DNA from: a virus
Direction: 5' to 3' (one strand)
IMG/VR virus record: IMGVR_UViG_3300043496_000020
Location: 1-40,310 of that record
DNA: 40,310 bases
Shown: positions 7,939-40,310 of the stretch, in pieces
How the letters are laid out: every line of letters starts with the position of its first letter
How positions within the stretch are numbered: position 1 is the stretch's first letter
The notes under the pieces: generated by a model
Database searches by the model: none
Told to the model about the DNA's origin: nothing
What the model saw: only the letters and a program-made list of their open reading frames with translations
Translations under genes and position numbers: made by a program

Positions 7939-8919
7939 ATGCCCGAGCCAATTGCTGGCATCACCAATCTGGTGACGACTACCATCAACAACTACCACAA
8001 GGAGTTCGCCGACAACGTCACGAACTCCAATGCGCTCACCGCCCTGCTCAAGATGAACGGCAGGACGCGCGTCGTCGAAGGCGGCAAGGTCATCAGCACG
8101 CCGCTCACCTACGCGGAGGAAACCTTCGCTTGGTACACCGGCACGGATCTCCTGAGCCGCGCCCTGAAGGAGACCATCTCCGAGGCGGACTATTCCCCCG
8201 CCAACGCGGTCGCCTCGCTCACCCTGGACGGCCCCACCCTCGCCAAGAACCGCTCGCGTGAACGCATCCTCAACTTGCTTGAGGGAAAAATGACGAACGC
8301 CGAGAACACGATGTCGAACAACGTCACGAAGGCTGTCTATGGCGACGGCACCGTGGCCAAATCGTTCGTCGGACTGAAGGCGATGGTGTCACCGACTGGC
8401 GGTGGCATCGTCGGCGGCATCGACAGCGGCACCTGGACGTTCTGGAAGAACCAGACCCAGGACGTGGTCCGCGCTACCGGCCTGCAATATCCGGCCCTCA
8501 AGGCCGCGATGAACGCGCTGTGGCTGAAGCTGACCCGCGGCACCGAGCATCCCGACCTGATCACCGCCGACGGCGAGGTCTATTCGACCTACGAGAGCGG
8601 GCTCCAGGAAAATCAGCGCTATGCCGACGCCAAGCTCGGCAGCCTGGGTTTCGAGACGCTGAAATACAAGCAGGCGGCGATCGTCTACGACAGCCCTGCA
8701 ACCGGGCTCGGCTCGGCGCCCGCGACCAACCCCGGCGCCTTCTATCTCAACACCAAATACCTCAAGTTCGAGATCTATAGCGGCTACAATTTCGAGCAGC
8801 TCGATCTCCCCGAAAAGACCCCCGACATGGACGCCATCACCCGGCATATCGGGTTCATGGGAACGCTCACCCTGGCCAATCGTGCGCTCCAGGGCCGGCT
8901 GACGCTGTCGGGCGCCTGA
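7939..8919 (+). CDS. Major capsid protein
   Basis: 326 aa with RBS aggag. It follows the scaffold gene and is followed by a strong terminator, the usual layout for high capsid expression. Confidence 0.75.
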   Translation: MPEPIAGITNLVTTTINNYHKEFADNVTNSNALTALLKMNGRTRVVEGGKVISTPLTYAEETFAWYTGTDLLSRALKETISEADYSPANAVASLTLDGPTLAKNRSRERILNLLEGKMTNAENTMSNNVTKAVYGDGTVAKSFVGLKAMVSPTGGGIVGGIDSGTWTFWKNQTQDVVRATGLQYPALKAAMNALWLKLTRGTEHPDLITADGEVYSTYESGLQENQRYADAKLGSLGFETLKYKQAAIVYDSPATGLGSAPATNPGAFYLNTKYLKFEIYSGYNFEQLDLPEKTPDMDAITRHIGFMGTLTLANRALQGRLTLSGA

Positions 8920-21475: not shown

Positions 21476-22482
21476 GCACGACCACTGCCTTGATCTTCGT
21501 CAACCCGATCGAGCCGGCGCCGCTGTCGCTGCGCGTGCCGTCGGGCGTCGAGACGCGCCTCGAGCTGTCGTTCTTCGACCAGCTCGGCGACGCCATCAAC
21601 ACCGATCTCCTGGCACAGCTCGAGCTGACCGCCCGATCGAGCGGTGCGGTGGCACTGTATGCCGTGCCGACCACAGACGTGGTCAATGGCCGCGCCAGGG
21701 CGATCCTGCCGCCCTACAGCGTGACGGACGGCAACGGCTACATCCTGCGCCTCTACGGCACCGTGAAGCAGCAACTGATGCTGTTGGCGACCGGCGTCGT
21801 CGATGTCACCCCGGCGATCGGGCCGACCAGTGCGCCGGTCGACGTGATCGATTCCATCGATCTCACCTTCACCCGCGACCAGGACGCCGTACTCAACATC
21901 GCCATCTGGGTCGACGCCACCGGCACGATCGAGGCCAGCATCGGCACATCGACGATATCGGCGGTCGTGCAGGACAGCCAGGGTGGCGGCATCCTGGCGC
22001 GCTTCACCGTCACGCCGGTCGACGACAACGAGGTGCAACTGACGCTGCCTGCCGCCACGGTCAACACGCTGCCCGATGTCTGTTGGTGGTCGATGGCGGC
22101 GTCGAGCTCGGCGGGCATGCAGACGCTGGCCGAGGGCCGCGTCTTCGTCAGCGGCACGATCGAGCTGCCGCTGCCGGTGACGATCGACAACTGGGAGTAT
22201 TTGAAGCCGGCGACCAACGACAACCCGACGATCGGCCAGATCGTTCACCCCAGCATCGCGCAGGGAACGCTGAAGATCTCGACGCAGTCGCAGCCTGGAA
22301 CCGACCAGACGGCACTGCTCACGGATCTCGAGGCAGGCGACCGCATCACCATCGGCGCCACCACCTGGGCGGTGCGCTTCACGCTCTACAATCCGCTCGG
22401 TTGGTTCGAGGTCGTCATTGCGCCGGTCGCCCAGGACGCCGTGACCGGCATCACCCCGGTGAAGTTCGAGCCGCCAGCATGA
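21472..22482 (+). CDS. Tail-associated protein of unknown function (336 aa)
   Basis: Track ORF, ATGA-coupled on both sides between the two fibre genes. Confidence 0.5.
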   Translation: MSTTTALIFVNPIEPAPLSLRVPSGVETRLELSFFDQLGDAINTDLLAQLELTARSSGAVALYAVPTTDVVNGRARAILPPYSVTDGNGYILRLYGTVKQQLMLLATGVVDVTPAIGPTSAPVDVIDSIDLTFTRDQDAVLNIAIWVDATGTIEASIGTSTISAVVQDSQGGGILARFTVTPVDDNEVQLTLPAATVNTLPDVCWWSMAASSSAGMQTLAEGRVFVSGTIELPLPVTIDNWEYLKPATNDNPTIGQIVHPSIAQGTLKISTQSQPGTDQTALLTDLEAGDRITIGATTWAVRFTLYNPLGWFEVVIAPVAQDAVTGITPVKFEPPA

Positions 22483-24458
22483 CCAAGGTCACTGTCACCC
22501 ACCCAGGCACTACGGTCGTCAAAGATGTCGTCGCACTGACGCGGCAGCCGATGTCACCCCCTGGCGGTCTGCCGCCCAATGTCGGGCTGGTCGCCATCAG
22601 CCAGTCGATGCCCACAGAGCTGATCCCAGGGCCGCCAGGGCCGAGGGGGCCGGTCGGGCCGGCCGGCGCCGACAGCACTGTGCCAGGGCCTCAGGGGCCG
22701 CAGGGCGAGACCGGCGAGACGGGTGCCGACAGCACGGTGCCAGGGCCGCAGGGGCCGACCGGCGCCACCGGCGCCACCGGCGCCACCGGGCCGGCCAGCA
22801 CGGTGCCAGGACCGCCAGGAGCACAAGGGCCGCAAGGTCTGAAGGGCGACACCGGCGACACCGGGCCGAAAGGCGACAAGGGTGACAAGGGCGACACCGG
22901 GGCCAGCGGCGCCAGTGCCTGGACGGACATCACCGGCAAGCCGGCGACGTTCCCGCCAGATCCGCACCAGCACCCCTTCACCGCGATCACCGGCACCCTG
23001 ACCGACGCCCAGCACGGGCTGCGCGGCAATCTCGGCATGCATGCGCTGGCGACGACATCGGTGCCGGGTTTCATGCTCGACGCCACCAACGACGGCAAGC
23101 CTTACGTCCGCAAGTCAGCGGCTTGGTACGACCTGACCGCCGACCTCGCCGGGAAGGTCGACAAGGCTGGCGACACCATGACCGGCGCGCTGGCCATCGC
23201 GCCCCCGACAGGCACGCCGCGCCTCGATCTGAGGTCGACCGCCGCCGTTGGCACGCTGATCTACATGGACAAGGCTGGCGGCAGCAACGACATCTATGGC
23301 GCGCATGCGGGCAAGTCCCGCTGGATCGTGCGGCTGGGCGACAGCGCCGCCGAGAGCGGCGGCGACGCTGGCACCAATTTCTACATCTACAAGTACGCCG
23401 ACGACGGCTCCACCGTGTCGACGGCGCTGTATATCAATCGCTCCAATCTGGCGGCGACGTTCGGCGGCGTCGCGATCTATGTCGGAAAGCTGGCCCTCGC
23501 CGCCAACGCCAGCATCTACAACACCACCGCCAATGACGCAGTCCAGCTATCGGGCGGCAACGGCACCAGCGTCGGAGCCTCGCTCGCCCTATTCGGCGCG
23601 ACGCACGCCACACTGCCCAACCGCGCCTATTTCGACGCCGCCATACACTATTGGAGGAGCGAAGGCGCGGCTGGCACCGTACTGCAATATACCCCCTCCA
23701 GCGGGTATCTGGTCGGGGCTGTCATGGTCACCGCTAGTGCGTTCACCTCGACGGGCAACAACTACTACGGGTCGGCGACGGCGTGGGCGGCAGGCCCGAA
23801 CGGCAACGGCACCGTCTACCTCCGCAACAACATCGGCGTCGGCACCGGGCTGACCCTGACGGCGAGCGTTATCGACTGGAGCAACGTGCTGCTTCAGGTC
23901 AACAACGCCCCGGCGGCGGGCGTGAACGGTGTCGCTTTGAACACCTATTACCTCAGGACATCGAACGCCCTCACCGCGTCTACCGCTTCTGCCGTCTTTA
24001 TGAACAACAACGGCCAAGTCGGCAGCATTACCACCAATGCCTCTGCGACCACGTTCAACACCACCTCCGACGAGACGCTGAAGGAGTTCAGGTCCAACTA
24101 CGATCCGCAGGAAGCCATCGCCATCATCCGCGCCGACCCGGTGCTTGGCTTCACATGGAAGGCGACCGGCGAGGAGGCCATCGGCTGGTTCGCGCAGCGC
24201 TCCTACGCGGTCGATCCGAACCTCGCGTCGCCGCCCGACATGAACTTGCCGGTCGGCAGGAGCATCGAGCGCCTCGACGACACCAGCATCGAGCCGAAGG
24301 TCACGGACATGCCTCCCGATCCGCAGTTGTGGGGCATCGACTACGGCAGGCGCACGCCGTACCTTTGGGCAGCTCTGACGTGGGCGCTCGACGAGATCGA
24401 GATCCTCAAGGAGCAGATGCAGACGCTCCTCGACCCAACCGCAAGGAAAGCACCATGA
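22479..24458 (+). CDS. Collagen-like tail fibre with a C-terminal S74-type chaperone domain
   Basis: Gly-X-Y repeats span roughly nt 22626-22917 (GPPGPRGPVGPAG...GDKGDKGDTGASG). The C-terminus reads TSDETLKEF...DPVLGFTWK...IGWFAQ. This is an internal ATG in track ORF 22083..24458. Confidence 0.8.
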   Translation: MTKVTVTHPGTTVVKDVVALTRQPMSPPGGLPPNVGLVAISQSMPTELIPGPPGPRGPVGPAGADSTVPGPQGPQGETGETGADSTVPGPQGPTGATGATGATGPASTVPGPPGAQGPQGLKGDTGDTGPKGDKGDKGDTGASGASAWTDITGKPATFPPDPHQHPFTAITGTLTDAQHGLRGNLGMHALATTSVPGFMLDATNDGKPYVRKSAAWYDLTADLAGKVDKAGDTMTGALAIAPPTGTPRLDLRSTAAVGTLIYMDKAGGSNDIYGAHAGKSRWIVRLGDSAAESGGDAGTNFYIYKYADDGSTVSTALYINRSNLAATFGGVAIYVGKLALAANASIYNTTANDAVQLSGGNGTSVGASLALFGATHATLPNRAYFDAAIHYWRSEGAAGTVLQYTPSSGYLVGAVMVTASAFTSTGNNYYGSATAWAAGPNGNGTVYLRNNIGVGTGLTLTASVIDWSNVLLQVNNAPAAGVNGVALNTYYLRTSNALTASTASAVFMNNNGQVGSITTNASATTFNTTSDETLKEFRSNYDPQEAIAIIRADPVLGFTWKATGEEAIGWFAQRSYAVDPNLASPPDMNLPVGRSIERLDDTSIEPKVTDMPPDPQLWGIDYGRRTPYLWAALTWALDEIEILKEQMQTLLDPTARKAP

Positions 24459-26040: not shown

Positions 26041-26466
26041 ATGCTTTTGCACCTCACACTCCTGGGCCAGCCGGTCGCCAAGGGCCGCGTCCGTTTCGCG
26101 CGCAAGACCGGCCATGCCTTCACGCCTGAGCGCACCGTCAACTACGAAAGCAAGCTGGCGCTCCTGGCGCAGGACAAGATGGCGGGCCGAGCTCCGTTCG
26201 AAGGGCCACTGGCGGTCGATGTCGTCGCCCTGATGAAGATCCCCGAGAGCTGGTCGAAGCGGAAACAGGAGCAGGCACGCATCGGCGAACTGATGCCGAC
26301 CGGGCGCCCAGATCTCGACAACTACGCCAAGATCCTCGATGCGCTCAATCTGGTCTGCTGGGTCGACGACAGCCAGATCGTCGAGCTGCACGTCTACAAG
26401 CGCTTTGCCGACCAACCGCAATTCACTGTCACCATCAGCAGACCGGGGGGTGGCTTTTTCGATTGA
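26041..26466 (+). CDS. rusA: RusA-family Holliday junction resolvase
   Basis: LLGQPVAKGRVRF...GRPDLDNYAKILDALN...DDSQIVEL matches the RusA pattern (catalytic Asp cluster D-x-D-N and DD). Confidence 0.8.
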   Translation: MLLHLTLLGQPVAKGRVRFARKTGHAFTPERTVNYESKLALLAQDKMAGRAPFEGPLAVDVVALMKIPESWSKRKQEQARIGELMPTGRPDLDNYAKILDALNLVCWVDDSQIVELHVYKRFADQPQFTVTISRPGGGFFD

Positions 26467-28462: not shown

Positions 28463-29709
28463 TGGCAGGGGGCAAAGCACACTCGGAATGGAGCGCGTCG
28501 GCATCGGCGCGCAACATGGCCTGCCCAGGCGCCCTGACGCTGATCAACTCTCGCAAGCTGCTCAGCGAGACATCGATCTTCGCCGCATGGGGAACGGTGA
28601 TGCACGACATCATCGAGCGGTCGCTGGCCAGCAAGAGCAACCCTGTCCGCTTTCTCGGCGCCGTCGTGAAGTGCGACGGCTACGACATCGAGGTCGACGA
28701 GGAGATGGTCGACGCGGCGACGGTCTGCGCCGACTATGTCACCTACATCGGCGCCCTACCGGGCGCCCAGACGTGGCTGGAAGAGCAGTTCGATCTCTCA
28801 CCGCTCGGGTTTCAGCTCCAGGCCGGCGGCACGTCAGACGCCGTCGTCTGGATGCCTGCCGATCGCACGCTCGAGATCGTCGACTACAAGGGCGGTCGCG
28901 GCAAGGTCGTCGAGATCCACGACAACACCCAGCTCCCGCACTATGGGCTGGGCGCCGTCCTGAAGCACCCTGAGCTGCCGGTGAAGACCGTCAAGATGAC
29001 GATCATCCAACCGCGCATCGAACACGCCGACGGCGCCATTCGCTCGATCGAGTGGCACGTCAGCGACCTGATCGACTTCGCCAACGATATCGCCAAAGCG
29101 ATCGATCGATCGGTGACGGCACTCGCCAACTTCCACGCCGGCGAGGTCGAGGCGTGGGGCGAGCAATGGCTCCACCCTGGCGACCATTGCCAGTTCTGTC
29201 CTGCCGCCGGTTCCTGCCCAGCCCTGCGCAAGCAGAGCCAGGAGATGGTCAATCTACACTGGAACGACGCCACGCCTGTCCTGACCTCCACGATGTCGCC
29301 AGACGCCGTCGAGCAGGATCTCGAGGTGCTGGATCTGATGGAGCACTGGATCTCTGAGCGGCGCGCCTACGCCCACCAGCTCGCCGAGGGCGGGCATCAG
29401 TTCGCTGGTTGGGTGCTGGTCGAAAAGAACGGGCATCGCAAGTGGAATGCTCCCGACAAGGAGACCGCCAAGGCGATCGTCACCGCGACCAAGCTCTCCG
29501 AGCTCGAGCTGTTCACCCAAAAACTGAAATCGCCCGCCCAGGTCGAGAAGACCCTGGGCAAGGCAAAGGAAAAGATCGCCGGCCTGTATCACACGCCCAT
29601 CATCGGGAAGGATCTGGTCCGACGTTCGAAGGCGGGGAGCCGCCAGCCAGCACAGTCGCTGGTTGATCAATTCTTCAATCTGGCAATCTCACAGGAGCCT
29701 GTAAAATGA
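28459..29709 (+). CDS. DUF2800-type PD-(D/E)XK nuclease with a Cas4-like Cys cluster
   Basis: N-terminal HSEWSASASARNMACPGAL, and central DAVVW...IVDYKGG (D...D/E-x-K), then C-terminal GDHCQFCPAAGSCPAL. Alternative ATG at 28462. Confidence 0.75.
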   Translation: MMAGGKAHSEWSASASARNMACPGALTLINSRKLLSETSIFAAWGTVMHDIIERSLASKSNPVRFLGAVVKCDGYDIEVDEEMVDAATVCADYVTYIGALPGAQTWLEEQFDLSPLGFQLQAGGTSDAVVWMPADRTLEIVDYKGGRGKVVEIHDNTQLPHYGLGAVLKHPELPVKTVKMTIIQPRIEHADGAIRSIEWHVSDLIDFANDIAKAIDRSVTALANFHAGEVEAWGEQWLHPGDHCQFCPAAGSCPALRKQSQEMVNLHWNDATPVLTSTMSPDAVEQDLEVLDLMEHWISERRAYAHQLAEGGHQFAGWVLVEKNGHRKWNAPDKETAKAIVTATKLSELELFTQKLKSPAQVEKTLGKAKEKIAGLYHTPIIGKDLVRRSKAGSRQPAQSLVDQFFNLAISQEPVK

Positions 29710-30320
29710 GCAAAACTGTAGCATCTGCGAAGTTCAAGACCCCGGTCTGCACCCTGGCGTTCGGGGGCGGCCTGTTCTCGGCCAAGTCCGTCGTCGAAGG
29801 CGGGCCGCGCAAGTACGGCTGCACGCTGATCTTCGACGATAAGATCGACAAGACGGCGTTCCAGAAGGCGGTGATGGAAGTCGCCTCTCAAGCCTGGGGC
29901 GACAAGTTCGAGGCACTGCGCAAGGCTGGCCACATCAAGATGCCGTTCCTGGCCGGCGACGGCCCCCAGGCACACAGCCGCACCACCGGCGAGCTGTGGG
30001 CCGGTTTCGGCCCCGGCAAGTTCTTCATCCGCCCTCAGTCGGGCGAAAAGAACCCGCCGGTCGTCCGCTATCTCGATCCGAACATCCCGGCCGATGAGAT
30101 CGAGGTCTACTCGGGCTGCACCGGCTGGGCGGTCCTGCATGCCTTCAATTGGTCGCACCCCACTGGCGGTCAGGGCATCTCGTTCGGCATCGACATGTTC
30201 AGGAAGACGGGTGACGGTGAGCGCCTGGGCGGCGGCGGCACGGTAGATCCCGAGAAGTGGTGGGATGGCGATCTGCCCAAGGCCGGCAACGGCGGCGCCG
30301 CGGCTGGTCTGTTCGACTGA
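29706..30320 (+). CDS. DUF2815-family (phage ssDNA-binding-like) protein
   Basis: ATGA-coupled directly after DUF2800, the conserved gene pair. The N-terminal FKTPVCTLAFGGGLF...KYGCTLIFD pattern also fits. Confidence 0.65.
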   Translation: MSKTVASAKFKTPVCTLAFGGGLFSAKSVVEGGPRKYGCTLIFDDKIDKTAFQKAVMEVASQAWGDKFEALRKAGHIKMPFLAGDGPQAHSRTTGELWAGFGPGKFFIRPQSGEKNPPVVRYLDPNIPADEIEVYSGCTGWAVLHAFNWSHPTGGQGISFGIDMFRKTGDGERLGGGGTVDPEKWWDGDLPKAGNGGAAAGLFD

Positions 30321-31408: not shown

Positions 31409-31695
31409 TGGATGTATGGGAGCAAATGATCGTGGCCCGCCGCTCGGACAGCCCAGAGGATCGTGCTCGCGTCTTTGGCAAGCTGTTGCCTCACATCATG
31501 GAGTTCCACGACGCCCACAGGGGCCAGGAATTCCATGCCGACGATCTCTACCAGTTCGTGATCGATCGCGAGCCCTGGTGCGCGCCTGAAAGCCCTGGCC
31601 GTTGCCTGCGCTTGGCACGGCAGAGGGGCTTCCTCAACTACATCGTCATCGATCGCAACAACTCGCTTTTCCAGTTTCTGGAGCAGGACGACTGA
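31408..31695 (+). CDS. Small protein, possible winged-helix DNA-binding protein (95 aa)
   Basis: GTGATG junction. The C-terminal region reads SPGRCLRLARQRGFLNYIVIDRNNSLFQF. Confidence 0.5.
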   Translation: MDVWEQMIVARRSDSPEDRARVFGKLLPHIMEFHDAHRGQEFHADDLYQFVIDREPWCAPESPGRCLRLARQRGFLNYIVIDRNNSLFQFLEQDD

Positions 31696-33791
31696 TGAGC
31701 AAGGTGCTGTCGATCGACTTCGAATCGAGATCCGCTGTCGATCTCAAGCACCAAGGCGCGCATGTCTATTGGGAGCACAGTTCGACCATCCCACTGTGCG
31801 CCGCCTGGGCGATCGACGACGGCCCGGTCAGCATTTGGGTGCCTGGGGAGAAACCTCCCCAGGCACTTGCCCACCACATCAGCAGCGGCGGCACTGTCAG
31901 CGGCTGGAACGTCGGTTTCGAAAAACTCTGTTTCGAGCATTGGATGCACCCCGAGTTCGGATGGCCGATGCCGGCCGACGAGCAGTTCGAGGACACGATG
32001 GCGATGGCTGCCGCGATGAGCCTTCCAAGAGGGCTGGACGAAGCCGCGGAGGCGATCGGCCTGGAGCACCGCAAGGACCATGAGGGCGCCTTGCTGATGC
32101 GCAAGCTGTCCAAGGCCGGCGGCTCCAACGATCCTGCCCTGCTCGAGCGCCTGTATGCCTATTGCCGCCAGGACGTTGTCGTGGAACGGGCGATGCGCAA
32201 GACATTGCTGCCGCTCTCGGAGCGCGAGCGCCGGCTCTACCTTCTTGACTCTAAAATCAACGCCCGCGGCGTGCTGCTCGATCTCGATCTGGTCGACGCC
32301 ATGCAGCGGATCGCCGACAGCGAGAAGACCCGCCTCGATGCGGCACTCGCTGTTGCCACTGGCGGTCAGGTCACCGCCGTCGGCCAATCGGTCAGGCTGT
32401 CGGCGTGGCTGACCGCCAATGGCATGTCGACGGACACGGTGGCGAAGCACGCCATCAACGACATGCTCGAGCGCGATCTGCCACCGAACGTGCGGCATGC
32501 GCTCGAGATCCGCCAGGAGGCGGCCAAGAGCTCCGTCGCCAAGCTGAAAGCCGCCGAGCTGTGCGTCTGCGCCGACGGTCGAGCTCGCGGCCTGCTCCAG
32601 TTTCTGGGCGCCGACAGCGGACGTTGGGCTGGGCGCCTGCTCCAGCCCCAGAATTTCCCCAGGCCGAGCGGCCTGATGAAGAACCCCGAGGCGGCGATCC
32701 CCTGGTTGATGAGCGGCGACGCCGAGGCGATCGAGTTCCGCTATGGATGGCCGCTGCGCGCGGTCGCCGACAGCCTGCGATCGATCATAGTTGCAGGCCC
32801 AGGCTGCAATTTCGTCGCCGCCGACTTCAGCTCGATCGAATCCAGGCTGCTGGCATGGTGCGCCGACGAGCGTTGGAAGCTCGCCGCCTATCGCGCCCAG
32901 GACGCCGGCAAAGGCCCTGGCATCTACGAGATCAACGCCGCCCAGATCTTTGGCGTGCCGGTCGAGACGATCGAGGACGGCGGCACCGAGCGACAGGTCG
33001 GCAAGGTCGCCGAGCTCAGCATGGGTTATGCCGGTGGCGTCACCGCATTGATGAAGATGGCGCGCAACTACAACGCCAAGATGGCTGTCGCCCTGCCCGC
33101 CCTCCTCGCCGCATCTCCAATGGAACGAATCGAGCGGGCAGAGCGCCGCCACGCGGACTGCGCCAAGCGCCGCGACAGTAGCGCGGACATCCTGTCACGC
33201 GATACCTGGATGGCGTGCGAGCTCACCAAGCTCGGATGGCGCGCCTCCAACGCGGCCAGCACCGACTTCTGGTCACAGCTCGAGGCCGCGGCCCGCGGCG
33301 CCGTCGACCACCCAGGCACCCAGGTGGCGACCGACAACGGCAAGGTCACGTTCCTGCTGGCAAAGGGCGTGCTGTGGCAGCGTTTGCCGTCGGGCCGCGT
33401 CCTGGCGTGGCCAAACCCCAAGATCACGCTGCTCGAGGTTCCCTGGGCCGACAAGACCAAGCCGCCAGAGCAGCGCGAGCGGCGCCGCACGGTCACGGCA
33501 CTGCGCGTCGAAGGCAAGCGGCTGCTGAGACAGCCGCTCTATGGCGGCATCTTGTGCGCCTACACCATCCAGGGAACGGCCCGCGATCTGCTGGCCGACG
33601 CGATGCTACGGGTCGAAGCGGCCGGGTATCCCCTGGCGCTCACGATACACGACGAAGCCATCAGCGAGATCCCGCAAGGGCATGGTTCGCTCGCCGAGTT
33701 CACCGCGATCGTGGAAGCTGCCGAGCCGTGGGCCGCCGGTCTTCCAATTGTGGCCAAGGGCTACCGCTCGCAGCGTCTCAAGAAAGGCTGA
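31695..33791 (+). CDS. Family A DNA polymerase with a 3-prime to 5-prime exonuclease domain
   Basis: Exo I is SIDFESRS. Motif A is ADFSSIESRLLAW, motif B is RQVGKVAELSMGYAGG and motif C is TIHDEAI. This is an internal ATG in track ORF 31602..33791. Confidence 0.9.
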   Translation: MSKVLSIDFESRSAVDLKHQGAHVYWEHSSTIPLCAAWAIDDGPVSIWVPGEKPPQALAHHISSGGTVSGWNVGFEKLCFEHWMHPEFGWPMPADEQFEDTMAMAAAMSLPRGLDEAAEAIGLEHRKDHEGALLMRKLSKAGGSNDPALLERLYAYCRQDVVVERAMRKTLLPLSERERRLYLLDSKINARGVLLDLDLVDAMQRIADSEKTRLDAALAVATGGQVTAVGQSVRLSAWLTANGMSTDTVAKHAINDMLERDLPPNVRHALEIRQEAAKSSVAKLKAAELCVCADGRARGLLQFLGADSGRWAGRLLQPQNFPRPSGLMKNPEAAIPWLMSGDAEAIEFRYGWPLRAVADSLRSIIVAGPGCNFVAADFSSIESRLLAWCADERWKLAAYRAQDAGKGPGIYEINAAQIFGVPVETIEDGGTERQVGKVAELSMGYAGGVTALMKMARNYNAKMAVALPALLAASPMERIERAERRHADCAKRRDSSADILSRDTWMACELTKLGWRASNAASTDFWSQLEAAARGAVDHPGTQVATDNGKVTFLLAKGVLWQRLPSGRVLAWPNPKITLLEVPWADKTKPPEQRERRRTVTALRVEGKRLLRQPLYGGILCAYTIQGTARDLLADAMLRVEAAGYPLALTIHDEAISEIPQGHGSLAEFTAIVEAAEPWAAGLPIVAKGYRSQRLKKG

Positions 33792-33888: not shown

Positions 33889-35916
33889 ATGAACGTATCG
33901 CCTGACCGTGAGTTCGGCAACCATTCCCACAACCACCAAGTCGCGCTCGACCTAGCGGCGCACGGCGTGCGCGTCTTTCCCTGCCGGCCCGCCGATGGAC
34001 CGCCAGACAATGACGGGCATCCGAAATGGCGGGCCAAGCAGCCGATGCCGCGCGTCAAGTGGACGGTGCAGGCGACCACCGACCCGCTGATCATCAATGC
34101 ATGGTGGTTCGCAACGCCCGACGCCCTGGTCGGTATGCCGCTCGAGCCGCTCGGCATCCTCATTCTCGATCCAGACCAGCACCCTGGCGCGCCCGACGGC
34201 ATCGCCGCCTACAACGCCCTGGCGGTCAAGTATCCCGAGCTGCTCAACGCGCCCTACGTGCAGACGCCGCAGGGCAAGCACTATCTGTTCGAGCAGACCG
34301 TGCCGCCGCACGGCAACGGCGAAGGCACGTTGCCACCGGGCATCAACGTGCGCGGCAAGGGCGGCTATGTGATCGCCCCAGGCACCATATTGCCCGACGG
34401 TCGCGGGTGGGTGATGCACAATCCGAACGGCGACGCGCCGAGGCAGCTCCCGCTGGCCATCATCGACATGCTCAGAGGCGCCCAGCCGCAGCCAGATCCC
34501 GACCCCGAGACATTCAAGCAAGCAGCCTGGGACTTCGACGATCTCACGCTCCCCTCAGAACCGCGCCGCGCCGCCTACCTGATGGCGTCCTGCCGCAACG
34601 CCTATGACAAGATCTGCAACGCCAAGCCCGGCACCCGCAACAACACGCTCAACACGCAGGCGGTGAAGCTGGGTCACTTCATCGGCGCCGGTCTGTTGGT
34701 CGAGGCCGAGATCACCACCCTTTTGACCGAGGCAGCCATCCAGGTCGGCCTGGACGAAGCGGAGATCGGGCCGACCATCAGATCCGGTCTGGCCAAGGGC
34801 AAGTCAGAGCCCAACGATCCGATCGACGTGGCCAATGAGTTCTGGGACGGCGACATCCCAGATCCCGAGCCCGACGCCAAGCAACCCACCGACCGCGTCT
34901 GGAACGCCACCGATCTGTGGGACATCCCGAGATCCACGTTCCTGATCGACGGCATGATCCCCGACAATGCGCTCGGCCTGATGGTCGGCGAAACGCAGAC
35001 GTTCAAATCGTTTATCGCGCAGTCGATCGCGCTCGCCATCGCGGCCGGCCTCAAGGATTGGCAGGGCCACGCCATACGGGCGCCCCAGGGCGCGATCGTG
35101 CTCTACATCGCAGGCGAGGGCGGCATCGAAAGCGCAGCCCTCAGGATGCGTGCCTGGGCCACGCAGCACGGCCTCACACGCGACACCTTGGGCGATCGCT
35201 TCCACCTGATCCCCTGGTCAATCAATCTCCTGGACAAGAAGTCGGTGCAGCGCCTCATCAAAGCCTGCAACAGCATCGTCACCGACACATCCAAGCTCGC
35301 CCTCATCGTGATCGACACCATCAACACCGCAAGCACCGGCTCCGACGAAAATTCCTCCCAGGACATGGGCATCCTGTACACGGTGATGCGGCGCCTCGCG
35401 GCGATCTACACGACCGCCATCATGGGCGTTCACCACACCAACAAGCGCGGCGGCACGCGCGGCTCCAATCTCCTATCGCAAAACGCCGACTTCACCCTCT
35501 TTCTGAAGCGCACCATGTCGGCGTGGCCGACCATGAACGTCGAGCTCCAGATCACCAAGCTGAAGGACGCACCATCAGGCACCGAGGAGAAATACCATCT
35601 CGACTTAATCGCCCTGCCCGACGGCACCACCTCCCTGGCACCAAAGCGCATCGGCGCCGTCCAGGCCGAGCGCACCGAAACCGTCGCAGCAGGACGCCCG
35701 AGCTCGCGGGCCGACGCCATCCTCGACGTGCTCAGGCGGTCAGCGCACATCGACGGTGAGACGCCGACGGAGATCTGCAACATCCTGGACATCACGGAAG
35801 GCTGGGAAAAGCGGGCCGTCACCAAGTGCCTGCGCAGGCTGCTCGGCCAGGGCATTGTGATCCGCGACGGCAACAAGTGGACGATCGTGGACGATGGTGG
35901 CGGGTTTTTGGATTGA
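33889..35916 (+). CDS. Bifunctional Prim-Pol primase / P-loop (RepA/DnaB-like) helicase
   Basis: The N-terminal region AHGVRVFPCRP...ILILDPDQH...VQTPQGKHYLF...VRGKGGYVIAPG fits a Prim-Pol domain. The central P-loop is GLMVGETQTFKS, and IVIDT is Walker B-like. Confidence 0.8.
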   Translation: MNVSPDREFGNHSHNHQVALDLAAHGVRVFPCRPADGPPDNDGHPKWRAKQPMPRVKWTVQATTDPLIINAWWFATPDALVGMPLEPLGILILDPDQHPGAPDGIAAYNALAVKYPELLNAPYVQTPQGKHYLFEQTVPPHGNGEGTLPPGINVRGKGGYVIAPGTILPDGRGWVMHNPNGDAPRQLPLAIIDMLRGAQPQPDPDPETFKQAAWDFDDLTLPSEPRRAAYLMASCRNAYDKICNAKPGTRNNTLNTQAVKLGHFIGAGLLVEAEITTLLTEAAIQVGLDEAEIGPTIRSGLAKGKSEPNDPIDVANEFWDGDIPDPEPDAKQPTDRVWNATDLWDIPRSTFLIDGMIPDNALGLMVGETQTFKSFIAQSIALAIAAGLKDWQGHAIRAPQGAIVLYIAGEGGIESAALRMRAWATQHGLTRDTLGDRFHLIPWSINLLDKKSVQRLIKACNSIVTDTSKLALIVIDTINTASTGSDENSSQDMGILYTVMRRLAAIYTTAIMGVHHTNKRGGTRGSNLLSQNADFTLFLKRTMSAWPTMNVELQITKLKDAPSGTEEKYHLDLIALPDGTTSLAPKRIGAVQAERTETVAAGRPSSRADAILDVLRRSAHIDGETPTEICNILDITEGWEKRAVTKCLRRLLGQGIVIRDGNKWTIVDDGGGFLD

Positions 35917-36056
35917 AAAGGACCGAAAACCCGAAATGGGCCGAAATAGGCCGAAACCTATTTCGGTCACATGCAGGACGCGACGACAATGCCCGTGACC
36001 GAAATCCGAAACCCCCCCCTTAAGGGGGTTTCGGTCACGGGCATTTCGGTCCTTTT
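35916..36056. repeat. Array of nine CCGAAA/TTTCGG hexamers with nested inverted repeats; ends in a strong + strand terminator-like hairpin plus T-run
   Basis: CCGAAA occurs at 35923, 35931, 35941, 35951, 35999 and 36006, and TTTCGG at 35961, 36029 and 36044. The outer 13-bp inverted repeat pairs 35916-35928 with 36044-36056. A 10-bp hairpin pairs 35941-35950 with 35957-35966. A composite 22-bp stem pairs 35988-36016 with 36024-36045 and is followed by tcggtcctttt. Confidence 0.8.
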
Positions 36057-36081
36057 GGTCAAATGGAGAGTGAGATGGGCA

Positions 36082-36570
36082 ATGCGTGAGATCCGACTGT
36101 CACCAAAGCAGCAGGCGTTTGTGCAGGCGTTGATCAAAGGGGCGACCTATGCTGATGCATATCGCAAGGCAGGGTTCCCTGGCGGTCAATCACGTACTGT
36201 TGCCACTAGCAACGCATCAAGGATGCTCAAGACAGATGCCAACGTTCAAGGTGCGATGAGGGAAGCTCGCGAAGAGCTGCGCCAACGCTCGATGTTGGAG
36301 GCTTGCGACATCATCGAGATGCTCCGAGAGACGCGCGAAGTCGCCCAGGCGGCCGATCCTCCCCAGGCCAGCGCCGCCGTCGCCGCCGCGATGGGCATCG
36401 CTAAGCTATTGGGATTGCAGATAGATCGGTCGGAAGCGGTCATCATGCACAAGCCGGCGCCGCTGCCGACGACCCTGGTCGAGCTGTCCACGGCTGACTG
36501 GCAGCGGCAGTTTGATCCGACCATGAAGACGATCGACAGCCAGGAACCGAGGCCTGACTTCCTCGATTGA
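36082..36570 (+). CDS. terS: Terminase small subunit (Terminase_2/P27-like)
   Basis: MREIRLSPKQQAFVQALIKGATYADAYRKAGFPGGQSRTVATSNASRMLKTDANVQGAM matches the N-terminal HTH pattern of this terS family. This is an internal ATG in track ORF 35971..36570. Confidence 0.7.
   Translation: MREIRLSPKQQAFVQALIKGATYADAYRKAGFPGGQSRTVATSNASRMLKTDANVQGAMREAREELRQRSMLEACDIIEMLRETREVAQAADPPQASAAVAAAMGIAKLLGLQIDRSEAVIMHKPAPLPTTLVELSTADWQRQFDPTMKTIDSQEPRPDFLD
36198..36214. promoter_or_regulatory. Operator-like site TGTTGCC-ACT-AGCAACG (one mismatch) inside terS (site 2 of 4)
   Basis: 13 of the 14 specified positions of TGTTGCC-N3-GGCAACG match, including both flanking bases. Confidence 0.4.
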
Positions 36571-36604
36571 GTAGTGGGGCGGAACCCGTGTCCGCCATAC
36601 CTAT

Positions 36605-36636
36605 GAGCTAAGCGACTGATATTGCTTAGCTTTCTC
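36605..36636 (+). terminator. Terminator-like hairpin after terS
   Basis: agctaagc (36606-36613) pairs with gcttagct (36624-36631) around a 10-nt loop, followed by tttctc. Confidence 0.6.
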
Positions 36637-36650
36637 GATCGGTGTTTGGG

Positions 36651-36674
36651 CTGTCCCTACTTCTGTCCCTACTT
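36651..36674. repeat. Exact tandem duplication of the 12-mer ctgtccctactt
   Basis: Seen in sequence, immediately upstream of operator site 3. Each copy carries a -10-like TACTTT. Confidence 0.85.
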
Positions 36675-36676
36675 TG

Positions 36677-36693
36677 TGTTGCCGATGGCAACG
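36677..36693. promoter_or_regulatory. Operator-type palindrome TGTTGCC-GAT-GGCAACG (site 3 of 4)
   Basis: Perfect half-sites, located in the gene-free region downstream of terS. Confidence 0.6.
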
Positions 36694-36744
36694 TATCGGC
36701 AGGAGGATATGCCTATTGCTCAGTGAGCTGAAGGCTGCGCGGAT

Positions 36745-36769
36745 CTCGAGCTCGAGGCGCCGATCGGCG
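36745..36769. repeat. Two adjacent perfect 12-bp palindromes, CTCGAGCTCGAG and CGCCGATCGGCG, separated by one base
   Basis: Seen in sequence at 36745-36756 and 36758-36769. Confidence 0.85.
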
Positions 36770-36774
36770 GTCGA

Positions 36775-36842
36775 GGGCGGGCAGGGCAGGCAGGGGGCCG
36801 GCACCCACCCAGGGGGGTAGATCGACACCGGGGGCGGCCGGG
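36775..36842 (+). other. G-tract block with G-quadruplex potential on the + strand
   Basis: GGG at 36775, GGG at 36779, GGG at 36784 and GGGGG at 36793 fit G3-N1-G3-N2-G3-N6-G5. Further G4-G6 runs occur at 36812, 36830 and 36839. Confidence 0.5.
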
Positions 36843-37036
36843 GCGAAAGAGGCTCCCTGACGCGCGACACGGATCACAGCCAGGGAATTTACAATGGCAA
36901 CCCCGCCTGAGCCCCGACACGCCTACATGCTTGCAAAACAGATGAGCCGCCCGCCTGGAGGGGCTGGGCGGCTCCACCGCACGTCGCTGAGCGGTGTTTA
37001 GGGAGATGAGCAGACTTGGTGTTCGCCCGCGACAAC

Positions 37037-37071
37037 GTCTGCCGCAGAGGCAGGCTCTGCCAGACCCTTTT
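37037..37071 (+). terminator. Terminator-like hairpin with T-run in + orientation, abutting the stop of the leftward operon (convergent terminator)
   Basis: gtctg..gcagag pairs with ctctgc.cagac (11 bp with a 2-nt bulge) around a gcagg loop, followed by cctttt. Confidence 0.5.
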
Positions 37072-37282
37072 AACTCCCTGGCGGTCGCATCAGCTCTTGC
37101 ACGATGCGGGCCTTCTCCTTGGCCAGCAGGCGGTCGACCTGAGCTTTCAGCTCGCCGCACTGGGCCTCGAACCATTTCGCCTCCTGGCGCCAGGAATTGG
37201 CTGATCTGATCGCCTCGTCGCGCTGCCGCTCGGCGGCGAACTTGTCGGCCTGGAGCAGGCGCCACTCGCTGTCGGAGATCAC
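37070..37282 (-). CDS. Coiled-coil protein (70 aa), last gene of the leftward operon
   Basis: GTGA coupling at 37282. Product is VISDSEWRLLQADKFAAERQRDEAIRSANSWRQEAKWFEAQCGELKAQVDRLLAKEKARIVQELMRPPGS*. The Arg-rich N-terminal part of track ORF 37070..37426 is rejected. Confidence 0.5.
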   Translation of the reverse strand: MISDSEWRLLQADKFAAERQRDEAIRSANSWRQEAKWFEAQCGELKAQVDRLLAKEKARIVQELMRPPGS

Positions 37283-37440
37283 GGCAGGCGCCAGAGGAAG
37301 AGAGGGGTTCCATCGCCCGCCCAGGCGCACAATGTGGGGAGCTGGCCGCACCGCTCGGCGACGCCGATGATGGCGTCGTCGAAGCCGTCGGCGAGCAGTG
37401 CGTCGGGATTGAGGTCGGCGATCCACTGGCGGTCGGTCAA
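37279..37440 (-). CDS. Small protein (53 aa) with a GFDDAIIGV motif; possibly an internally deleted member of a larger family
   Basis: Not in the track (under 60 aa). The TTG start overlaps the upstream stop. Product is LTDRQWIADLNPDALLADGFDDAIIGVAERCGQLPTLCAWAGDGTPLFLWRLP*, with high third-position GC. Confidence 0.4.
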   Translation of the reverse strand: MTDRQWIADLNPDALLADGFDDAIIGVAERCGQLPTLCAWAGDGTPLFLWRLP

Positions 37441-37742
37441 TGTCGAATCCTTCTGGCGACGAGCAGCCGCTCGACTTGCGTCTTCAGCTCGTCGCGCTGC
37501 CTGCGAAGCTCTACGGCATCGGCGGCATCTCGCTCGACAAACTCCTTGAAGAATTTGTGCGCCTGTTCGTGGACCTGGACCTCCGCTGCCATGCGAAGGT
37601 CGCGCTCGCGGTCGTGCATCAGCCGCAGCCGGTCGAGTTCATTGAACACCGCCTGGAGGCCGTCGACCGAGATGAACACGTTCGCATGGTCTCGGCGCTT
37701 CTCCAGATGGGCGCGCAGCCGCTCGATGGGGTCGTCGGTCAT
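37437..37742 (-). CDS. Coiled-coil protein (101 aa)
   Basis: Track ORF with ATGA coupling. Its C-terminal ELKTQVERLLVARR echoes ELKAQVDRLLAKEK of the 37070..37282 product. Confidence 0.55.
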   Translation of the reverse strand: MTDDPIERLRAHLEKRRDHANVFISVDGLQAVFNELDRLRLMHDRERDLRMAAEVQVHEQAHKFFKEFVERDAADAVELRRQRDELKTQVERLLVARRIRH

Positions 37743-38008
37743 ATGATCTCTTCCAGCGTTGACCTGAATTCAACGCCGCCCTTCGACCTGATCCAGTCGT
37801 AGGCGTCCCTCTCGGCACGCCCCCGCCCCGCTTCGATGCGGCGCTGGTCGATGAACTTGCCGTCGGCGTCGCGCGCCGTCACCAGCCAGACCCTCTTGGG
37901 CCAGACGGCACCCGTACCGTTGCACCAGTCGCACTCCTTCAACGGCACCGCGGTATCCTCGCCGGTGCCGTTGCAGCGCGGGCAGGGGCTGGGGAGGAGG
38001 GTGCTCAT
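37739..38008 (-). CDS. Zinc-finger protein with two CxxCxGxG motifs (DnaJ cysteine-rich type), 89 aa
   Basis: ATG at 38008 overlaps the stop of the HTH gene (ATGA). Product is MSTLLPSPCPRCNGTGEDTAVPLKECDWCNGTGAVW.... Confidence 0.6.
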   Translation of the reverse strand: MSTLLPSPCPRCNGTGEDTAVPLKECDWCNGTGAVWPKRVWLVTARDADGKFIDQRRIEAGRGRAERDAYDWIRSKGGVEFRSTLEEII

Positions 38009-38193
38009 TCCAGGAACTCTTGCTGGCGTTTGCCCTCGAGCAGCTCGAGCATCATCGCGATCGTGCCTGGAACCGGCCGGCGGCCGGCTTTCCAATGCAT
38101 CACGGCATAGCGCGAGACGCGGAACTGGGTGGCCGCGGCCGAGGTGGTCAGGCCGAGCGCTTTGAGGCGTTTCTTGAATTCATGCTTTGTCAT
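38005..38193 (-). CDS. Cro/CI (Xre)-type helix-turn-helix transcriptional regulator (62 aa)
   Basis: LGLTTSAAATQFRVSRYAVMHWKAGRRPVP is a typical HTH. It is the first gene of the leftward operon at a divergent promoter region that carries operator site 4. Confidence 0.75.
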   Translation of the reverse strand: MTKHEFKKRLKALGLTTSAAATQFRVSRYAVMHWKAGRRPVPGTIAMMLELLEGKRQQEFLE

Positions 38194-38200
38194 GGGGGGA

Positions 38201-38229
38201 AATGTAAGACGTTACCCTTGTCAACGCAA
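38201..38229 (-). promoter_or_regulatory. Candidate leftward promoter for the HTH operon (leaderless or near-leaderless)
   Basis: On the minus strand: TTGCGT (38229-38224), a 17-nt spacer, then TACATT (38206-38201). The ATG at 38193 lies 7 nt after the -10 element, and there is no Shine-Dalgarno sequence. Confidence 0.4.
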
Positions 38230-38246
38230 GGATCGGTGATTATGTT
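38218..38246 (+). promoter_or_regulatory. Candidate rightward early promoter
   Basis: TTGTCA (38218-38223), a 17-nt spacer, then TATGTT (38241-38246). The -10 element overlaps operator site 4. Confidence 0.55.
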
Positions 38247-38259
38247 GCCAGAGGCAACG
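38243..38259. promoter_or_regulatory. Operator-type palindrome TGTTGCC-AGA-GGCAACG (site 4 of 4)
   Basis: Perfect half-sites covering the -10/+1 region of the rightward promoter, next to the HTH gene. Confidence 0.65.
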
Positions 38260-38282
38260 ACGAGCCGCCGGGAGAGACTGAG

Positions 38283-38576
38283 ATGACCACCACCGAACTG
38301 TTCCAGACCTATCAGGCGGCGGAAGCTGCTTCTAACGCCGCGCACGAAGCGGATGCTCCTGACGCGATCGCGCTGGGCCAAGTGTCTGACCGTGCGTTTG
38401 CGGCTTGGCGGGCAGCGGTCGCCGAGGCTCGCACCATCTGGCAGTCGTTCCCGGCAGGCGCCCGCAAGTCGAGCGCCGAGACCAACGCCGAGGACACCGA
38501 GGGCTGTGCCGAGGATGAGCTGCGTTGGTTCGATATCGCTATCCGCACTTACGAAATGGACGATTGCACTCGCTAA
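38283..38576 (+). CDS. Acidic early protein (97 aa), first gene of the early operon
   Basis: RBS ggagag; track ORF. By hand count it has about 18 Asp/Glu versus about 8 Arg/Lys. Confidence 0.6.
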   Translation: MTTTELFQTYQAAEAASNAAHEADAPDAIALGQVSDRAFAAWRAAVAEARTIWQSFPAGARKSSAETNAEDTEGCAEDELRWFDIAIRTYEMDDCTR

Positions 38577-38590
38577 AAGGAGAGACCGAG

Positions 38591-38854
38591 ATGACCAACT
38601 ACGTCGCCACCAAATACCGCTTCGCCGATGGCGTCGCCTACCGCCCGAATTTGTATCTCATCCAGACCGAGGAGCGCATCCGCTCTTACGGCGGTCTGGT
38701 CGTCTTGAAGGACAAGGCCCTGGCCTATGCCGGTTCGCCGACGCTCATCCAGGAGAAGATCGGTTCCATCATCGCGTCGGCTGACGCCTATGCCTGGGGC
38801 AGCACCCCGGCCGAGGCACTGGCCAAGATCAAGCCGCACCTGGGAGCACGCTGA
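38591..38854 (+). CDS. Hypothetical early protein (87 aa)
   Basis: RBS aaggagag before ATG 38591. This is an internal start in track ORF 38525..38854. Confidence 0.6.
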   Translation: MTNYVATKYRFADGVAYRPNLYLIQTEERIRSYGGLVVLKDKALAYAGSPTLIQEKIGSIIASADAYAWGSTPAEALAKIKPHLGAR

Positions 38855-39078
38855 TGCGTGTTCACGAAGATCCTCGCACCATCACCGTGTGGGACAAGAG
38901 CAAGTGCGTCGCCACCGCTCGCCAAACCGGGCGCGGCTGGTTGCTCAGGCTGCACGCCGCTTCCTGGGTCAATAAGAAGACCCGTGGCGTCGGCAACGAT
39001 CCTTCGCTGAAGGTCGTGCAAAACCGCAAGATCGCGCTGCATGAGATGAAGCTCCTGGCAGGAGGAAAAGAACCATGA
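38854..39078 (+). CDS. Hypothetical early protein (74 aa)
   Basis: Track ORF with TGATG coupling. Confidence 0.55.
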   Translation: MRVHEDPRTITVWDKSKCVATARQTGRGWLLRLHAASWVNKKTRGVGNDPSLKVVQNRKIALHEMKLLAGGKEP

Positions 39079-39212
39079 ACGACACCGTCAACAGGCTACT
39101 CGACGAGCTGGCGATCGTCCTGCTCGCGCTGATCGAGGGCCGCATCACCGAGGCGGCCTATGAGGCCGAGGTCGTGCGGCTGCTCGACGCCATCGAGGCT
39201 GCCCGCGACTAA
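39075..39212 (+). CDS. Small helical protein (45 aa)
   Basis: Not in the track. ATGA coupling. Product is MNDTVNRLLDELAIVLLALIEGRITEAAYEAEVVRLLDAIEAARD*. Confidence 0.45.
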   Translation: MNDTVNRLLDELAIVLLALIEGRITEAAYEAEVVRLLDAIEAARD

Positions 39213-39287
39213 GATCGAAACCAGGGTCCGATCCCCTGGTAGCGGCGTAAGGCGCCGCCTGATGAGATCAGCAACAGGAGAACGACA

Positions 39288-40283
39288 ATGAATAAGGGCA
39301 TTTCCTTGCAGGCACTGGCCGCCGAGATCGAGCGCCAGGACGACGCCAAGCACGACATGATCGCCGACACCGGCGCCGTGACCATGCACGACATGGAGGG
39401 CGCTTTCTCCCTGGCGGTCGCCGATGAGGATTTCGGCATCAACCAGACCGCCCACAGCCAGATCGCGGCTCGCCTGGGCATCCCGCTCAAATACTACGAT
39501 CGCATGCAGGCCGAGGCGCCTTCGATGCTGTCGTACAACGTCAATGAGTGGTTTCGCAGGAAACCCGAGCGCCGCATGATCAGGACACTCGACGGCAACG
39601 TGCGGGCGTTCCTGAGCGATCGATATCAGCGCATCGACAACTGGGACATCAGCAAGGCGGCGCTGCCGGTCCTGGCCAAGATCCCCGAGCTCAAGATCGT
39701 CTCATCGCAGATCACCGAGCACCGCATGTACATCCAGGCGGTGACGGCGCGGCTGACCGAGAACGTCGCCCTGAACGACGCCGTGCAGGCCGGCGTCATC
39801 ATCTCCAACTCGGAGATCGGCATGGGCTCGGTGTCGGTCGCCCCGATCGTCTACCGTCTCAAATGCCTGAACGGCATGGTCATCGCCGATCAGAAATACC
39901 GGGCGATGCACGTCGGCCGCCGCATCGAAGACTCGGCCGAGCTGTGGGCCGACGATACCCGGCAGGCCGACGACCGGGCGGTGCTGCTGAAGGTCCGCGA
40001 CATGATCGCCAAGGCGGTCGATGCCGTGAACTTCCGCGAGAACGTCGAGCGCATGCAGGGTCTGGTGCGCGAGAGCGTCACCGGCAACCCGATCAAGGTG
40101 GTCGAGGTGCTGTCGAAGCGCCTGGGCATCACCGAGGCCGAGCAGGGCGGCATCCTGCGCTCGTTGATCGAGGGCGGCGACCTCTGTCGGCGTGGGGCGT
40201 GCTCAACGCGGTCACCGCCCAGGCCCACGGCGCCGAGTACGATCGTGCGGTCGAGTTCGAGGCGGCCGGCGGCCAGCTCCTGA
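39288..40283 (+). CDS. DUF932-family protein. The frame is credible up to 40181; the conserved C-terminus continues in another frame (40184 onward, equal to 1..144), so the gene is frameshifted as assembled.
   Basis: RBS aggag. LRTLDGNVRAFLSDRYQRIDNWD and GVIISNSEIGMGSVSVAPIVYRLKCLNGM are typical DUF932 blocks. After ...LIEGGDL the track frame becomes the Arg/Ser/Pro-rich CRRGACSTRSPP.... Confidence 0.8.
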   Translation: MNKGISLQALAAEIERQDDAKHDMIADTGAVTMHDMEGAFSLAVADEDFGINQTAHSQIAARLGIPLKYYDRMQAEAPSMLSYNVNEWFRRKPERRMIRTLDGNVRAFLSDRYQRIDNWDISKAALPVLAKIPELKIVSSQITEHRMYIQAVTARLTENVALNDAVQAGVIISNSEIGMGSVSVAPIVYRLKCLNGMVIADQKYRAMHVGRRIEDSAELWADDTRQADDRAVLLKVRDMIAKAVDAVNFRENVERMQGLVRESVTGNPIKVVEVLSKRLGITEAEQGGILRSLIEGGDLCRRGACSTRSPPRPTAPSTIVRSSSRRPAASS

Positions 40284-40310
40284 CGCTCGATCGCAAGGAA
40301 TGGTCGCGCA
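40184..40310. repeat. Terminal direct repeat, copy 2 of 2 (identical to 1..127)
   Basis: Exact 127-nt identity with the window start, read by eye. Confidence 0.95.

Follow-up and report, generated by a model that had tools for sequence, protein, structure and literature searches.

The alpha protein of satellite phage P4 is a single primase-helicase polypeptide, the C-terminal DNA-binding domain of which reads short direct and inverted iterons. It combines a DnaG-like primase with a superfamily 3 (SF3) helicase and depends on two iteron clusters, ori and crr, that lie apart from each other. The packaging (pac) sites of phages SPP1 and P1 also consist of short repeated boxes, located close to terS or within it; these boxes are read by TerS, and DNA bending or integration host factor (IHF) is involved. 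In staphylococcal pathogenicity islands (SaPI), a terS gene is found further downstream in the element. SaPI Rep binds with its C-terminal winged-helix domain to 6-12 iterons of 5-6 nt, which lie in both orientations immediately downstream of rep (PMC9371898), and each SaPI Rep binds only its own origin (PMC9371898). In pRN1, the origin is a stem-loop downstream of the gene for a protein consisting of a primase-polymerase (PrimPol), a helicase and a winged helix, and the same was proposed for phage BIP-1 (PMC4234260). The stem-loop of pRN1 ORF904 and Bordetella phage BIP-1 is located beside a terminator-like hairpin, and its sequence varies while the structure is kept (PMC4234260). An iteron array was not described for these elements, and the binding motifs are called unidentified in the pRN1 paper (PMC4234260). 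In this study, an array of CCGAAA repeats was analysed, which is located between a primase-helicase gene and terS in the IMG/VR virus record IMGVR_UViG_3300043496_000020 (positions 1 to 40,310; this whole stretch of 40,310 nucleotides is referred to as the window). The array is probably the iteron-type replication origin of this phage, with the winged helix of the neighbouring PrimPol-helicase as its reader.

In the window, the hexamer CCGAAA occurs 29 times if both strands are considered (16.7 ± 4.0 expected), and none of 100 shuffled sequences reached this number. Nine of the 29 hexamers are located within 127 bp (35923-36049). An earlier note on this DNA had described nine copies of CCGAAA or its complement within 140 bp and starts exactly 10 bp apart at 35931, 35941, 35951 and (inverted) 35961; the hexamer count and the hexamer positions confirmed both statements. 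The assignment of the flanking genes as primase-helicase and terS was likewise borne out by Pfam and PHROG matches (Table 1). The first unit begins 5 nt past the stop codon of the helicase gene, and the nine units occur in both orientations. Their consensus is GRCCGAAA (8 nt). Of the longer unit GACCGAAA, the window contains five copies, each of them in the array, and no second cluster of units was found elsewhere in the window.

Ten related metagenomic loci (designated L with a number) were found via proteins homologous to the primase-helicase (49-63% identity) and to TerS, and all ten possess an array between the helicase gene and terS. In all relatives, three or four direct units with a spacing of 7-8, 10-11 and 10-11 nt are followed ~5 nt on by an inverted unit, which forms a hairpin with the last direct unit and is degenerate in L003. 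After a gap of 21-43 nt (unit end to unit end) there follow a unit, in many cases with a half-unit 7 nt further, a GC-rich stem-loop and an inverted unit; two clades have one further inverted unit 14-15 nt on. The 10-bp spacing and the layout, the conservation of which had been proposed as a check, are thus kept, though every unit is replaced in concert: six unit sequences, unrelated to one another, occur across the window and its relatives (Table 1), and between clades unpaired direct copies and inverted copies are exchanged together. Such a concerted change of direct and inverted copies is predicted for a protein-recognition site and not for a plain hairpin. A protein-binding array, one of the roles considered in the earlier note, is strongly supported by this combination of kept layout and phasing with units replaced together. 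A scan of IMG/VR with the helicase found nothing and one with TerS yielded a single distant locus; a metagenome scan gave three short loci, two of which were new. Of these three, L011 alone contributed a new unit type; L016, L017 and L019 added nothing new.

Two candidate readers were compared across the loci, namely the winged helix of the helicase and the helix-turn-helix (HTH) of TerS. In the AlphaFold2 model, the last ~70 residues of the primase-helicase form three helices and a beta-hairpin (predicted local distance difference test score of the core ~85). Nearly all of the 50 matches listed in a Foldseek comparison with the PDB were winged-helix or related HTH proteins (IclR/PcaR, MarR, histone H5, LexA, ArsR), and all of them were weak, with a best E-value of 4e-3 among the 50 listed. 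Sub-threshold Pfam matches to the C-termini of the window and two relatives also belonged mostly to winged-helix or HTH families; a sequence search of the domain against the PDB yielded chance matches only. On the basis of the model, the C-terminus of the primase-helicase is predicted to be a winged helix. In the segment comprising helix 2, helix 3 and the wing, helicases from loci with the same unit are 80-100% identical, and those from loci with different units 21-64%. For the TerS HTH, these ranges overlap (58-77% and 50-86%, respectively). The most similar TerS HTH pair, L014 and L004 (86%), belongs to different units, and L014 and L001, which share their unit, are just 58% identical in this region. 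In this test of cognate specificity at the sequence level, the six unit types separated cleanly by winged-helix identity and not by the TerS HTH. It follows, as far as such comparisons reach, that the unit type tracks the winged-helix segment of the helicase and not the HTH of TerS.

The mosaic structure of the genomes also separates the array from terS. L014 and L010 show 92-100% identity through the 3' end of the helicase gene and the array, 36-60% across the small open reading frame (ORF) and the 5' end of terS, and again 94-98% thereafter; L014 carries the TerS HTH of L004, whose units differ. The window and L013, its closest relative, are 96-100% identical through helicase and array (the arrays differ by one base), but only 68-80% in the TerS HTH region (36147-36296), before identity returns to 100%. 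Between array and terS, L013 possesses an ORF of 71 amino acids (1430-1645), which is deleted in the window and of which the mini-ORF ATGGGCAATGCGTGA of the window is a remnant. In general, the array stays unchanged where the small ORF behind it is a different one or is missing. Judged by these identity profiles, the small ORF together with the DNA-binding region of TerS is a separate, exchangeable recombination cassette. Since the mosaic genomes keep helicase and array and swap the cassette, the array is inherited with the helicase gene.

A comparable arrangement was detected in more distant homologues. The protein p101 of Rhizobium phage 16-3 shows 25.6% identity to the primase-helicase over 90% of the query. 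In this phage (L020, NC_011103.1, 56240-56620), ~16 copies of GCGTGACAA(A) in both orientations begin inside the stop codon of p101; three direct units with ~10-nt spacing precede an inverted unit, and the array closes with a unit, a GC hairpin and an inverted unit. RHph_X2_25 (L023), with a helicase homologue of ~25% identity, has the same arrangement and the same unit GCGTGACAA. The genes next to the array of 16-3 encode p102 and then a VRR-NUC protein, whereas terS is annotated at 46-510 and the cohesive end at 60186-60195, ~3.6 kb and eight genes from the array. These data suggest the GCGTGACAA array as a candidate replication origin of 16-3; no paper mapping the origin of this phage was found in a full-text literature search. 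In a scan of bacterial genomes, helicase homologues were found mainly in Alphaproteobacteria, and those sharing the AAA_25 region have unit arrays of their own directly 3' of the stop codon (Table 1). The arrays of L027, L078 and L083 contain a unit, a GC hairpin and an inverted unit, and those of L034 and L038 contain inverted units on either side of a GC-rich stretch. Because the array of 16-3 lies away from terS and those in bacteria are followed by other genes, the array goes with the helicase family and not with terS. Mycobacteriophage homologues are uninformative, because they lack intergenic space downstream. Even in distant homologues the array starts no more than ~10 nt from the helicase stop codon, with L003, where a small ORF lies between, as the sole exception.

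The G+C content of the arrays (42-52%) is 10-20 points lower than that of their genomes (53-64%). The array of the window has 52% G+C, compared to 64% in the phage genome, and no AT-rich block. Directly left of the direct units, most relatives possess a box AAATCAA(N2-7)GATAGGT, which is a match or near-match to the IHF consensus WATCAANNNNTTR. This consensus was found eight times in 121 kb of loci, with four of the matches in the 3 kb of arrays (~39-fold denser); these four (L003, L005, 16-3 and RHph_X2_25) share one orientation. In the window, the consensus is absent. The cumulative GC skew of the genome has its minimum at 35724, which is weak support for an origin, because transcription direction dominates the skew in phages.

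Three inverted repeats superimposed on the array had been described in the earlier note, and all of them were recovered: a perfect outer repeat of 13 nt (I3, 35916-35928 with 36044-36056), a perfect repeat of 10 nt (I8, 35941-35950 with 35957-35966) and a composite stem (I1, 35988-36007 with 36026-36045, 20 nt, 95%; I6, 36006-36016 with 36024-36034). A search of the entire genome for inverted repeats (seed 12, minimum length 16) yielded just two, of which I1 is one. The region 35900-36085 folds as three hairpins (35901-35933, 35936-35972 and 35988-36048), and folding of the array as RNA and as DNA, which had been suggested as well, gave structures far better than those of shuffled sequences (z of -6.8 and -8.1, respectively). 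The distal module forms the composite hairpin in all ten loci tested (z of -4.5 to -8.4). Many alternative pairings exist because identical units occur in both orientations, one of them being I2 (35960-35975 with 35990-36005). Counts of G-U wobbles, by which hairpins at the RNA level might be told from those at the DNA level, were unusable with too few mismatches.

We infer binding, melting and initiation at the array from the sequence comparisons, the structure model and analogy to the systems mentioned above. The 8-nt GRCCGAAA units would be iterons bound by the C-terminal winged helix of the PrimPol-helicase. Four direct units one helical turn apart could place several winged-helix domains along the same side of the double helix and in this way nucleate the helicase ring, and the units in opposite orientation (35961, 36029 and 36044) may permit assembly in both directions. 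On strained or melted DNA, hairpins of the inverted units might extrude and provide the single-stranded DNA on which the helicase is loaded and primers are made. Together, the distal unit, the GC hairpin and the inverted unit would probably also serve as a weak terminator that ends the replication operon.

Some observations weigh against this interpretation. Its main anatomical weakness is the lack of an AT-rich unwinding block in the window, where the spacer has ~60% G+C; furthermore, the window, like L013 and L007, is devoid of the AT-rich, IHF-like box that most relatives possess. The end of the recognition helix and the wing show 25-35% column identity, compared to an average of 50%, yet two linkers are equally variable. 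Kinship of closely related genomes confounds part of the covariation signal, and a gene at another place in the left part of the genome may encode the reader. In a profile comparison, similarity between the winged helix and the C-terminus of p101 of phage 16-3 was undetectable, and the shared layout could therefore be convergent.

The neighbourhood of the array also brings to mind a pac site, in which the units would be binding sites of TerS and mark the start of headful packaging. Throughout the window's own family, terS follows the array directly or after a small ORF, the TerS is of the Terminase_2 type, and short repeated motifs close to terS, with an IHF-like site in relatives, are reminiscent of the repeated boxes upstream of SPP1 gene 1 and of the 4+3 hexamers of P1 pac. 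However, the TerS HTH does not follow the unit type, as the pairs L014/L004 and L014/L001 show, and recombination boundaries lie between the array and the cassette of small ORF and terS 5' end. In addition, 16-3 has the layout after its helicase homologue with cos and terS annotated elsewhere, and bacterial homologues carry the array with other downstream genes. Since the DNA-binding region of TerS is exchanged independently of the array, the pac site proposed in the earlier note is not supported and appears very improbable. If the phage packages from a pac site, the data suggest that this site lies within the exchangeable cassette. A repeat cluster beside terS should not be annotated as pac by default. 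A slightly better, though still low, probability is assigned to an operator array for another phage protein, for example a late-gene activator, a repressor or a partition-type protein, without a role in initiation. The start of the array no more than ~10 nt past the helicase stop codon, even with unrelated downstream genes and with L003 as the exception, is at odds with this explanation, as is the unchanged array next to small ORFs that change or vanish; on the other hand, activator and repressor sites, too, typically consist of direct repeats at 10-bp intervals upstream of a gene, and the candidate readers compared across the relatives were the helicase and TerS.

If its function were purely transcriptional, the array would close the replication operon as an intrinsic terminator or attenuator, and its alternative hairpins would set the read-through into terS. 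The terminator scan called no site in the array because the T-tract is too short; an intrinsic terminator would have at least five T in the eight bases directly after the stem. Instead of the T-run that the earlier note had placed at the end of the composite stem, TTT alone follows the inner stem, and TTTT is found nine bases on (the copy of 16-3 has TTTTGT). A GC-rich stem-loop as expected of an intrinsic terminator at the operon end is nevertheless present (inner stem 36012-36028); in all relatives it is followed by TTT while the stem sequences differ, and the array stands at the end of a long operon on the same strand. The alternative pairing I2 exists, but extends past the bare unit in the window only. 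No Rfam family reached its gathering threshold in the array (best scores of 18-24 bits, generic hairpins, versus thresholds of 56-197), and a scan of the array for sigma-70 promoters found nothing. Above all, transcription would leave unexplained why three to four unpaired direct units keep their 10-bp spacing and why all copies change in concert with the C-terminus of the helicase, and we consider it unlikely to be the sole function. The statement that the units can pair in mutually exclusive ways thus holds with regard to the pairings themselves, but for a terminator/antiterminator switch between exclusive RNA folds there is no positive evidence; the distal hairpin may have a secondary role as terminator. 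Origin iterons, which had also been among the proposed roles, fit the evidence, as the unit type tracks the winged helix and the array follows helicase homologues where terS lies elsewhere.

Table 1. Features of the array, its neighbourhood and its counterparts in other loci (positions are those of the respective locus).
Locus	Feature	Position	Strand	Basis or remark
Window	terL	814-2301
Window	portal gene	2298-4679
Window	polA	31602-33791
Window	primase-helicase gene, 675 amino acids, PrimPol and AAA_25 (RepA/DnaB-like), proposed initiator	33889-35916	+	Pfam Prim-Pol 2.4e-20, AAA_25 4e-29; PHROG DNA polymerase/primase
Window	predicted C-terminal winged helix-turn-helix domain of the primase-helicase, proposed iteron reader	35707-35886	+	AlphaFold2 model
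Window	hairpin 1, across the helicase stop codon (35914-35916) and the first unit	35901-35933	.	inverted repeat I7 and folds
Window	four direct units GACCGAAA, cCCGAAA, GGCCGAAA, GGCCGAAA	35921-35956	+	CCGAAA spacing 8, 10, 10
Window	CCGAAA starts	35923, 35931, 35941, 35951, 35999, 36006	+
Window	CCGAAA starts	35961, 36029, 36044	-
Window	inverted unit TTTCGGTC, 5 nt beyond the last direct unit	35961-35968	-	forms hairpin 2 (35941-35966) with 35941-35950
Window	spacer between the array halves	35969-35996	.	without unit, not AT-rich
Window	distal composite hairpin	35988-36045	.	I1, I6; DNA fold -25.4 kcal/mol, z -6.4
Window	distal unit	35997-36004
Window	distal half-unit	36005-36011
Window	inner GC stem-loop, C8-TTAA-G5	36012-36028
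Window	distal inverted unit	36029-36036	-
Window	last inverted unit TTTCGGTC and TTTT	36044-36056	-	right arm of the outer 13-nt inverted repeat
Window	GGAG ribosome-binding site and 4-codon mini-ORF ATGGGCAATGCGTGA (36075-36089)	36065-36089	+	overlaps the terS start
Window	terS (Terminase_2), probably not the array reader	36082-36570	+	Terminase_2 4.8e-7; phrog_51 1.2e-14
Window, L013	unit GRCCGAAA
L001, L007, L010, L014	unit GCACGAAA
L003	unit GCGGACAAAA
L004, L008	unit GTGTGCGAAA
L005	unit GGACGAAA
L011	unit TGCATCATAA
L001	AAATCAA..GATAGG box	7690-7712
L003	AAATCAA..GATAGG box	5535-5555
L004	AAATCAA..GATAGG box	8048-8068
L005	AAATCAA..GATAGG box	5138-5160
L008	AAATCAA..GATAGG box	3520-3542
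L011	AAATCAA..GATAGG box	303-323
L014	AAATCAA..GATAGG box	1703-1727
L020	AAATCAA..GATAGG box	4643-4657
L027, L030, L031	unit CGGGACA			6 copies
L034	unit GCAACGC			6 copies
L038	unit TTCCAAC			10 copies
L078	unit CGTTCCC			8 copies
L083	unit ATTTCCA			8 copies

The window was assembled as a circle, its two ends overlapping exactly over 127 nt (1-127 = 40184-40310), corresponding to a genome of ~40,183 bp. Its ends are arbitrary and fall inside a DUF932 gene; because of the circular assembly, it does not reveal the physical ends of the phage genome. The proteins of the replication module are an SNF2 helicase, a DUF2800 nuclease, a single-stranded DNA-binding protein (SSB) of the Gp2.5/Enc34 type, PolA and the PrimPol and AAA_25 helicase. 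The start of terS, set from the alignment with relatives, is 26 nt away from the end of the array. Between terS and terL, ~4.4 kb (36570-40310 and 1-814) are occupied by convergent small minus-strand ORFs, several small plus-strand ORFs and the DUF932 gene, an arrangement also kept in relatives. At the DNA level, none of 50,697 phage records matched 33889-37000, and the closest TerL among phage records shows 41-43% identity. The host group of these uncultured ~40-kb high-GC phages is probably Alphaproteobacteria.

Three further repeats were noticed in coding sequences. The last helicase codons directly before the array (35877-35900) contain 2.4 copies of the 10-nt tandem repeat GTGGACGATC, which may be coincidental. 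In L017 (905-935; = L005, within the helicase gene), an additional inverted unit pair GGACGAAAC...GGTTTCGTCC is present in the sequence encoding the wing insertion of the winged helix. Inside the ORF 22083-24458 of the window, tandem repeats of 9 nt and 36 nt rich in GGN codons (22620-22915) were found, pointing to a collagen-like Gly-X-Y stretch in a putative tail fibre protein of 791 amino acids.

Four proteins encoded in the window end alike: a protein of 141 amino acids (26041-26466, ..GGGFFD), the SSB (29706-30320, ..AAGLFD), the primase-helicase (..GGGFLD) and TerS (..RPDFLD). In the relatives checked, this tail is kept in helicase and TerS of L001, L003 and L004 and in the SSB of L001 and L004. 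Such a C-terminal tail was unexpected on TerS. The C-terminal tails of the SSB gp2.5 and the helicase gp4 of phage T7 dock onto the polymerase. By analogy, the origin might also be the point at which replication hands over to packaging, the tail recruiting TerS to the replisome or letting it compete for the latter, but the chance of this is small.

With this locus, a concrete pair of origin and initiator is proposed for a group of uncultured ~40-kb high-GC phages, and for Rhizobium phage 16-3, which has been studied for a long time, an origin location is suggested. At least six specificity variants occur naturally; they constitute a set for studying how winged helices are retargeted to new DNA sequences and could serve to build compatible replicons.

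In comparison to the described systems, the locus resembles SaPI Rep and its origin and would work in the same manner, with the primase-helicase loading itself, as a helicase with a (predicted) C-terminal winged helix is followed directly 3' of its gene by short repeats in both orientations. In contrast to SaPI Rep, which belongs to SF3/AAA+, the helicase analysed here is a RecA-type AAA_25 protein fused to PrimPol; since it lacks the SF3/AAA+ core, it stands outside the SaPI Rep protein family and is a functional analogue only. SaPI origins further possess a central AT-rich block, which the window lacks, whereas the composite GC hairpin between inverted units is a feature of the window and not of SaPI origins. 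The element carrying the array is a complete phage, and SaPI are satellites. With pRN1 and BIP-1, the locus shares the combination of PrimPol, helicase and winged helix as well as a stem-loop directly downstream of the gene; their helicase is of SF3 and not AAA_25, and the stem-loop of pRN1 comprises ~100 nt compared to 58 nt here. Unlike P4 with ori and crr, the window has a single cluster, and unlike the boxes at SPP1 and P1 pac, the units vary independently of the DNA-binding region of TerS. Taken together, the array most likely represents an origin of a known kind, found in a group of phages not described before.

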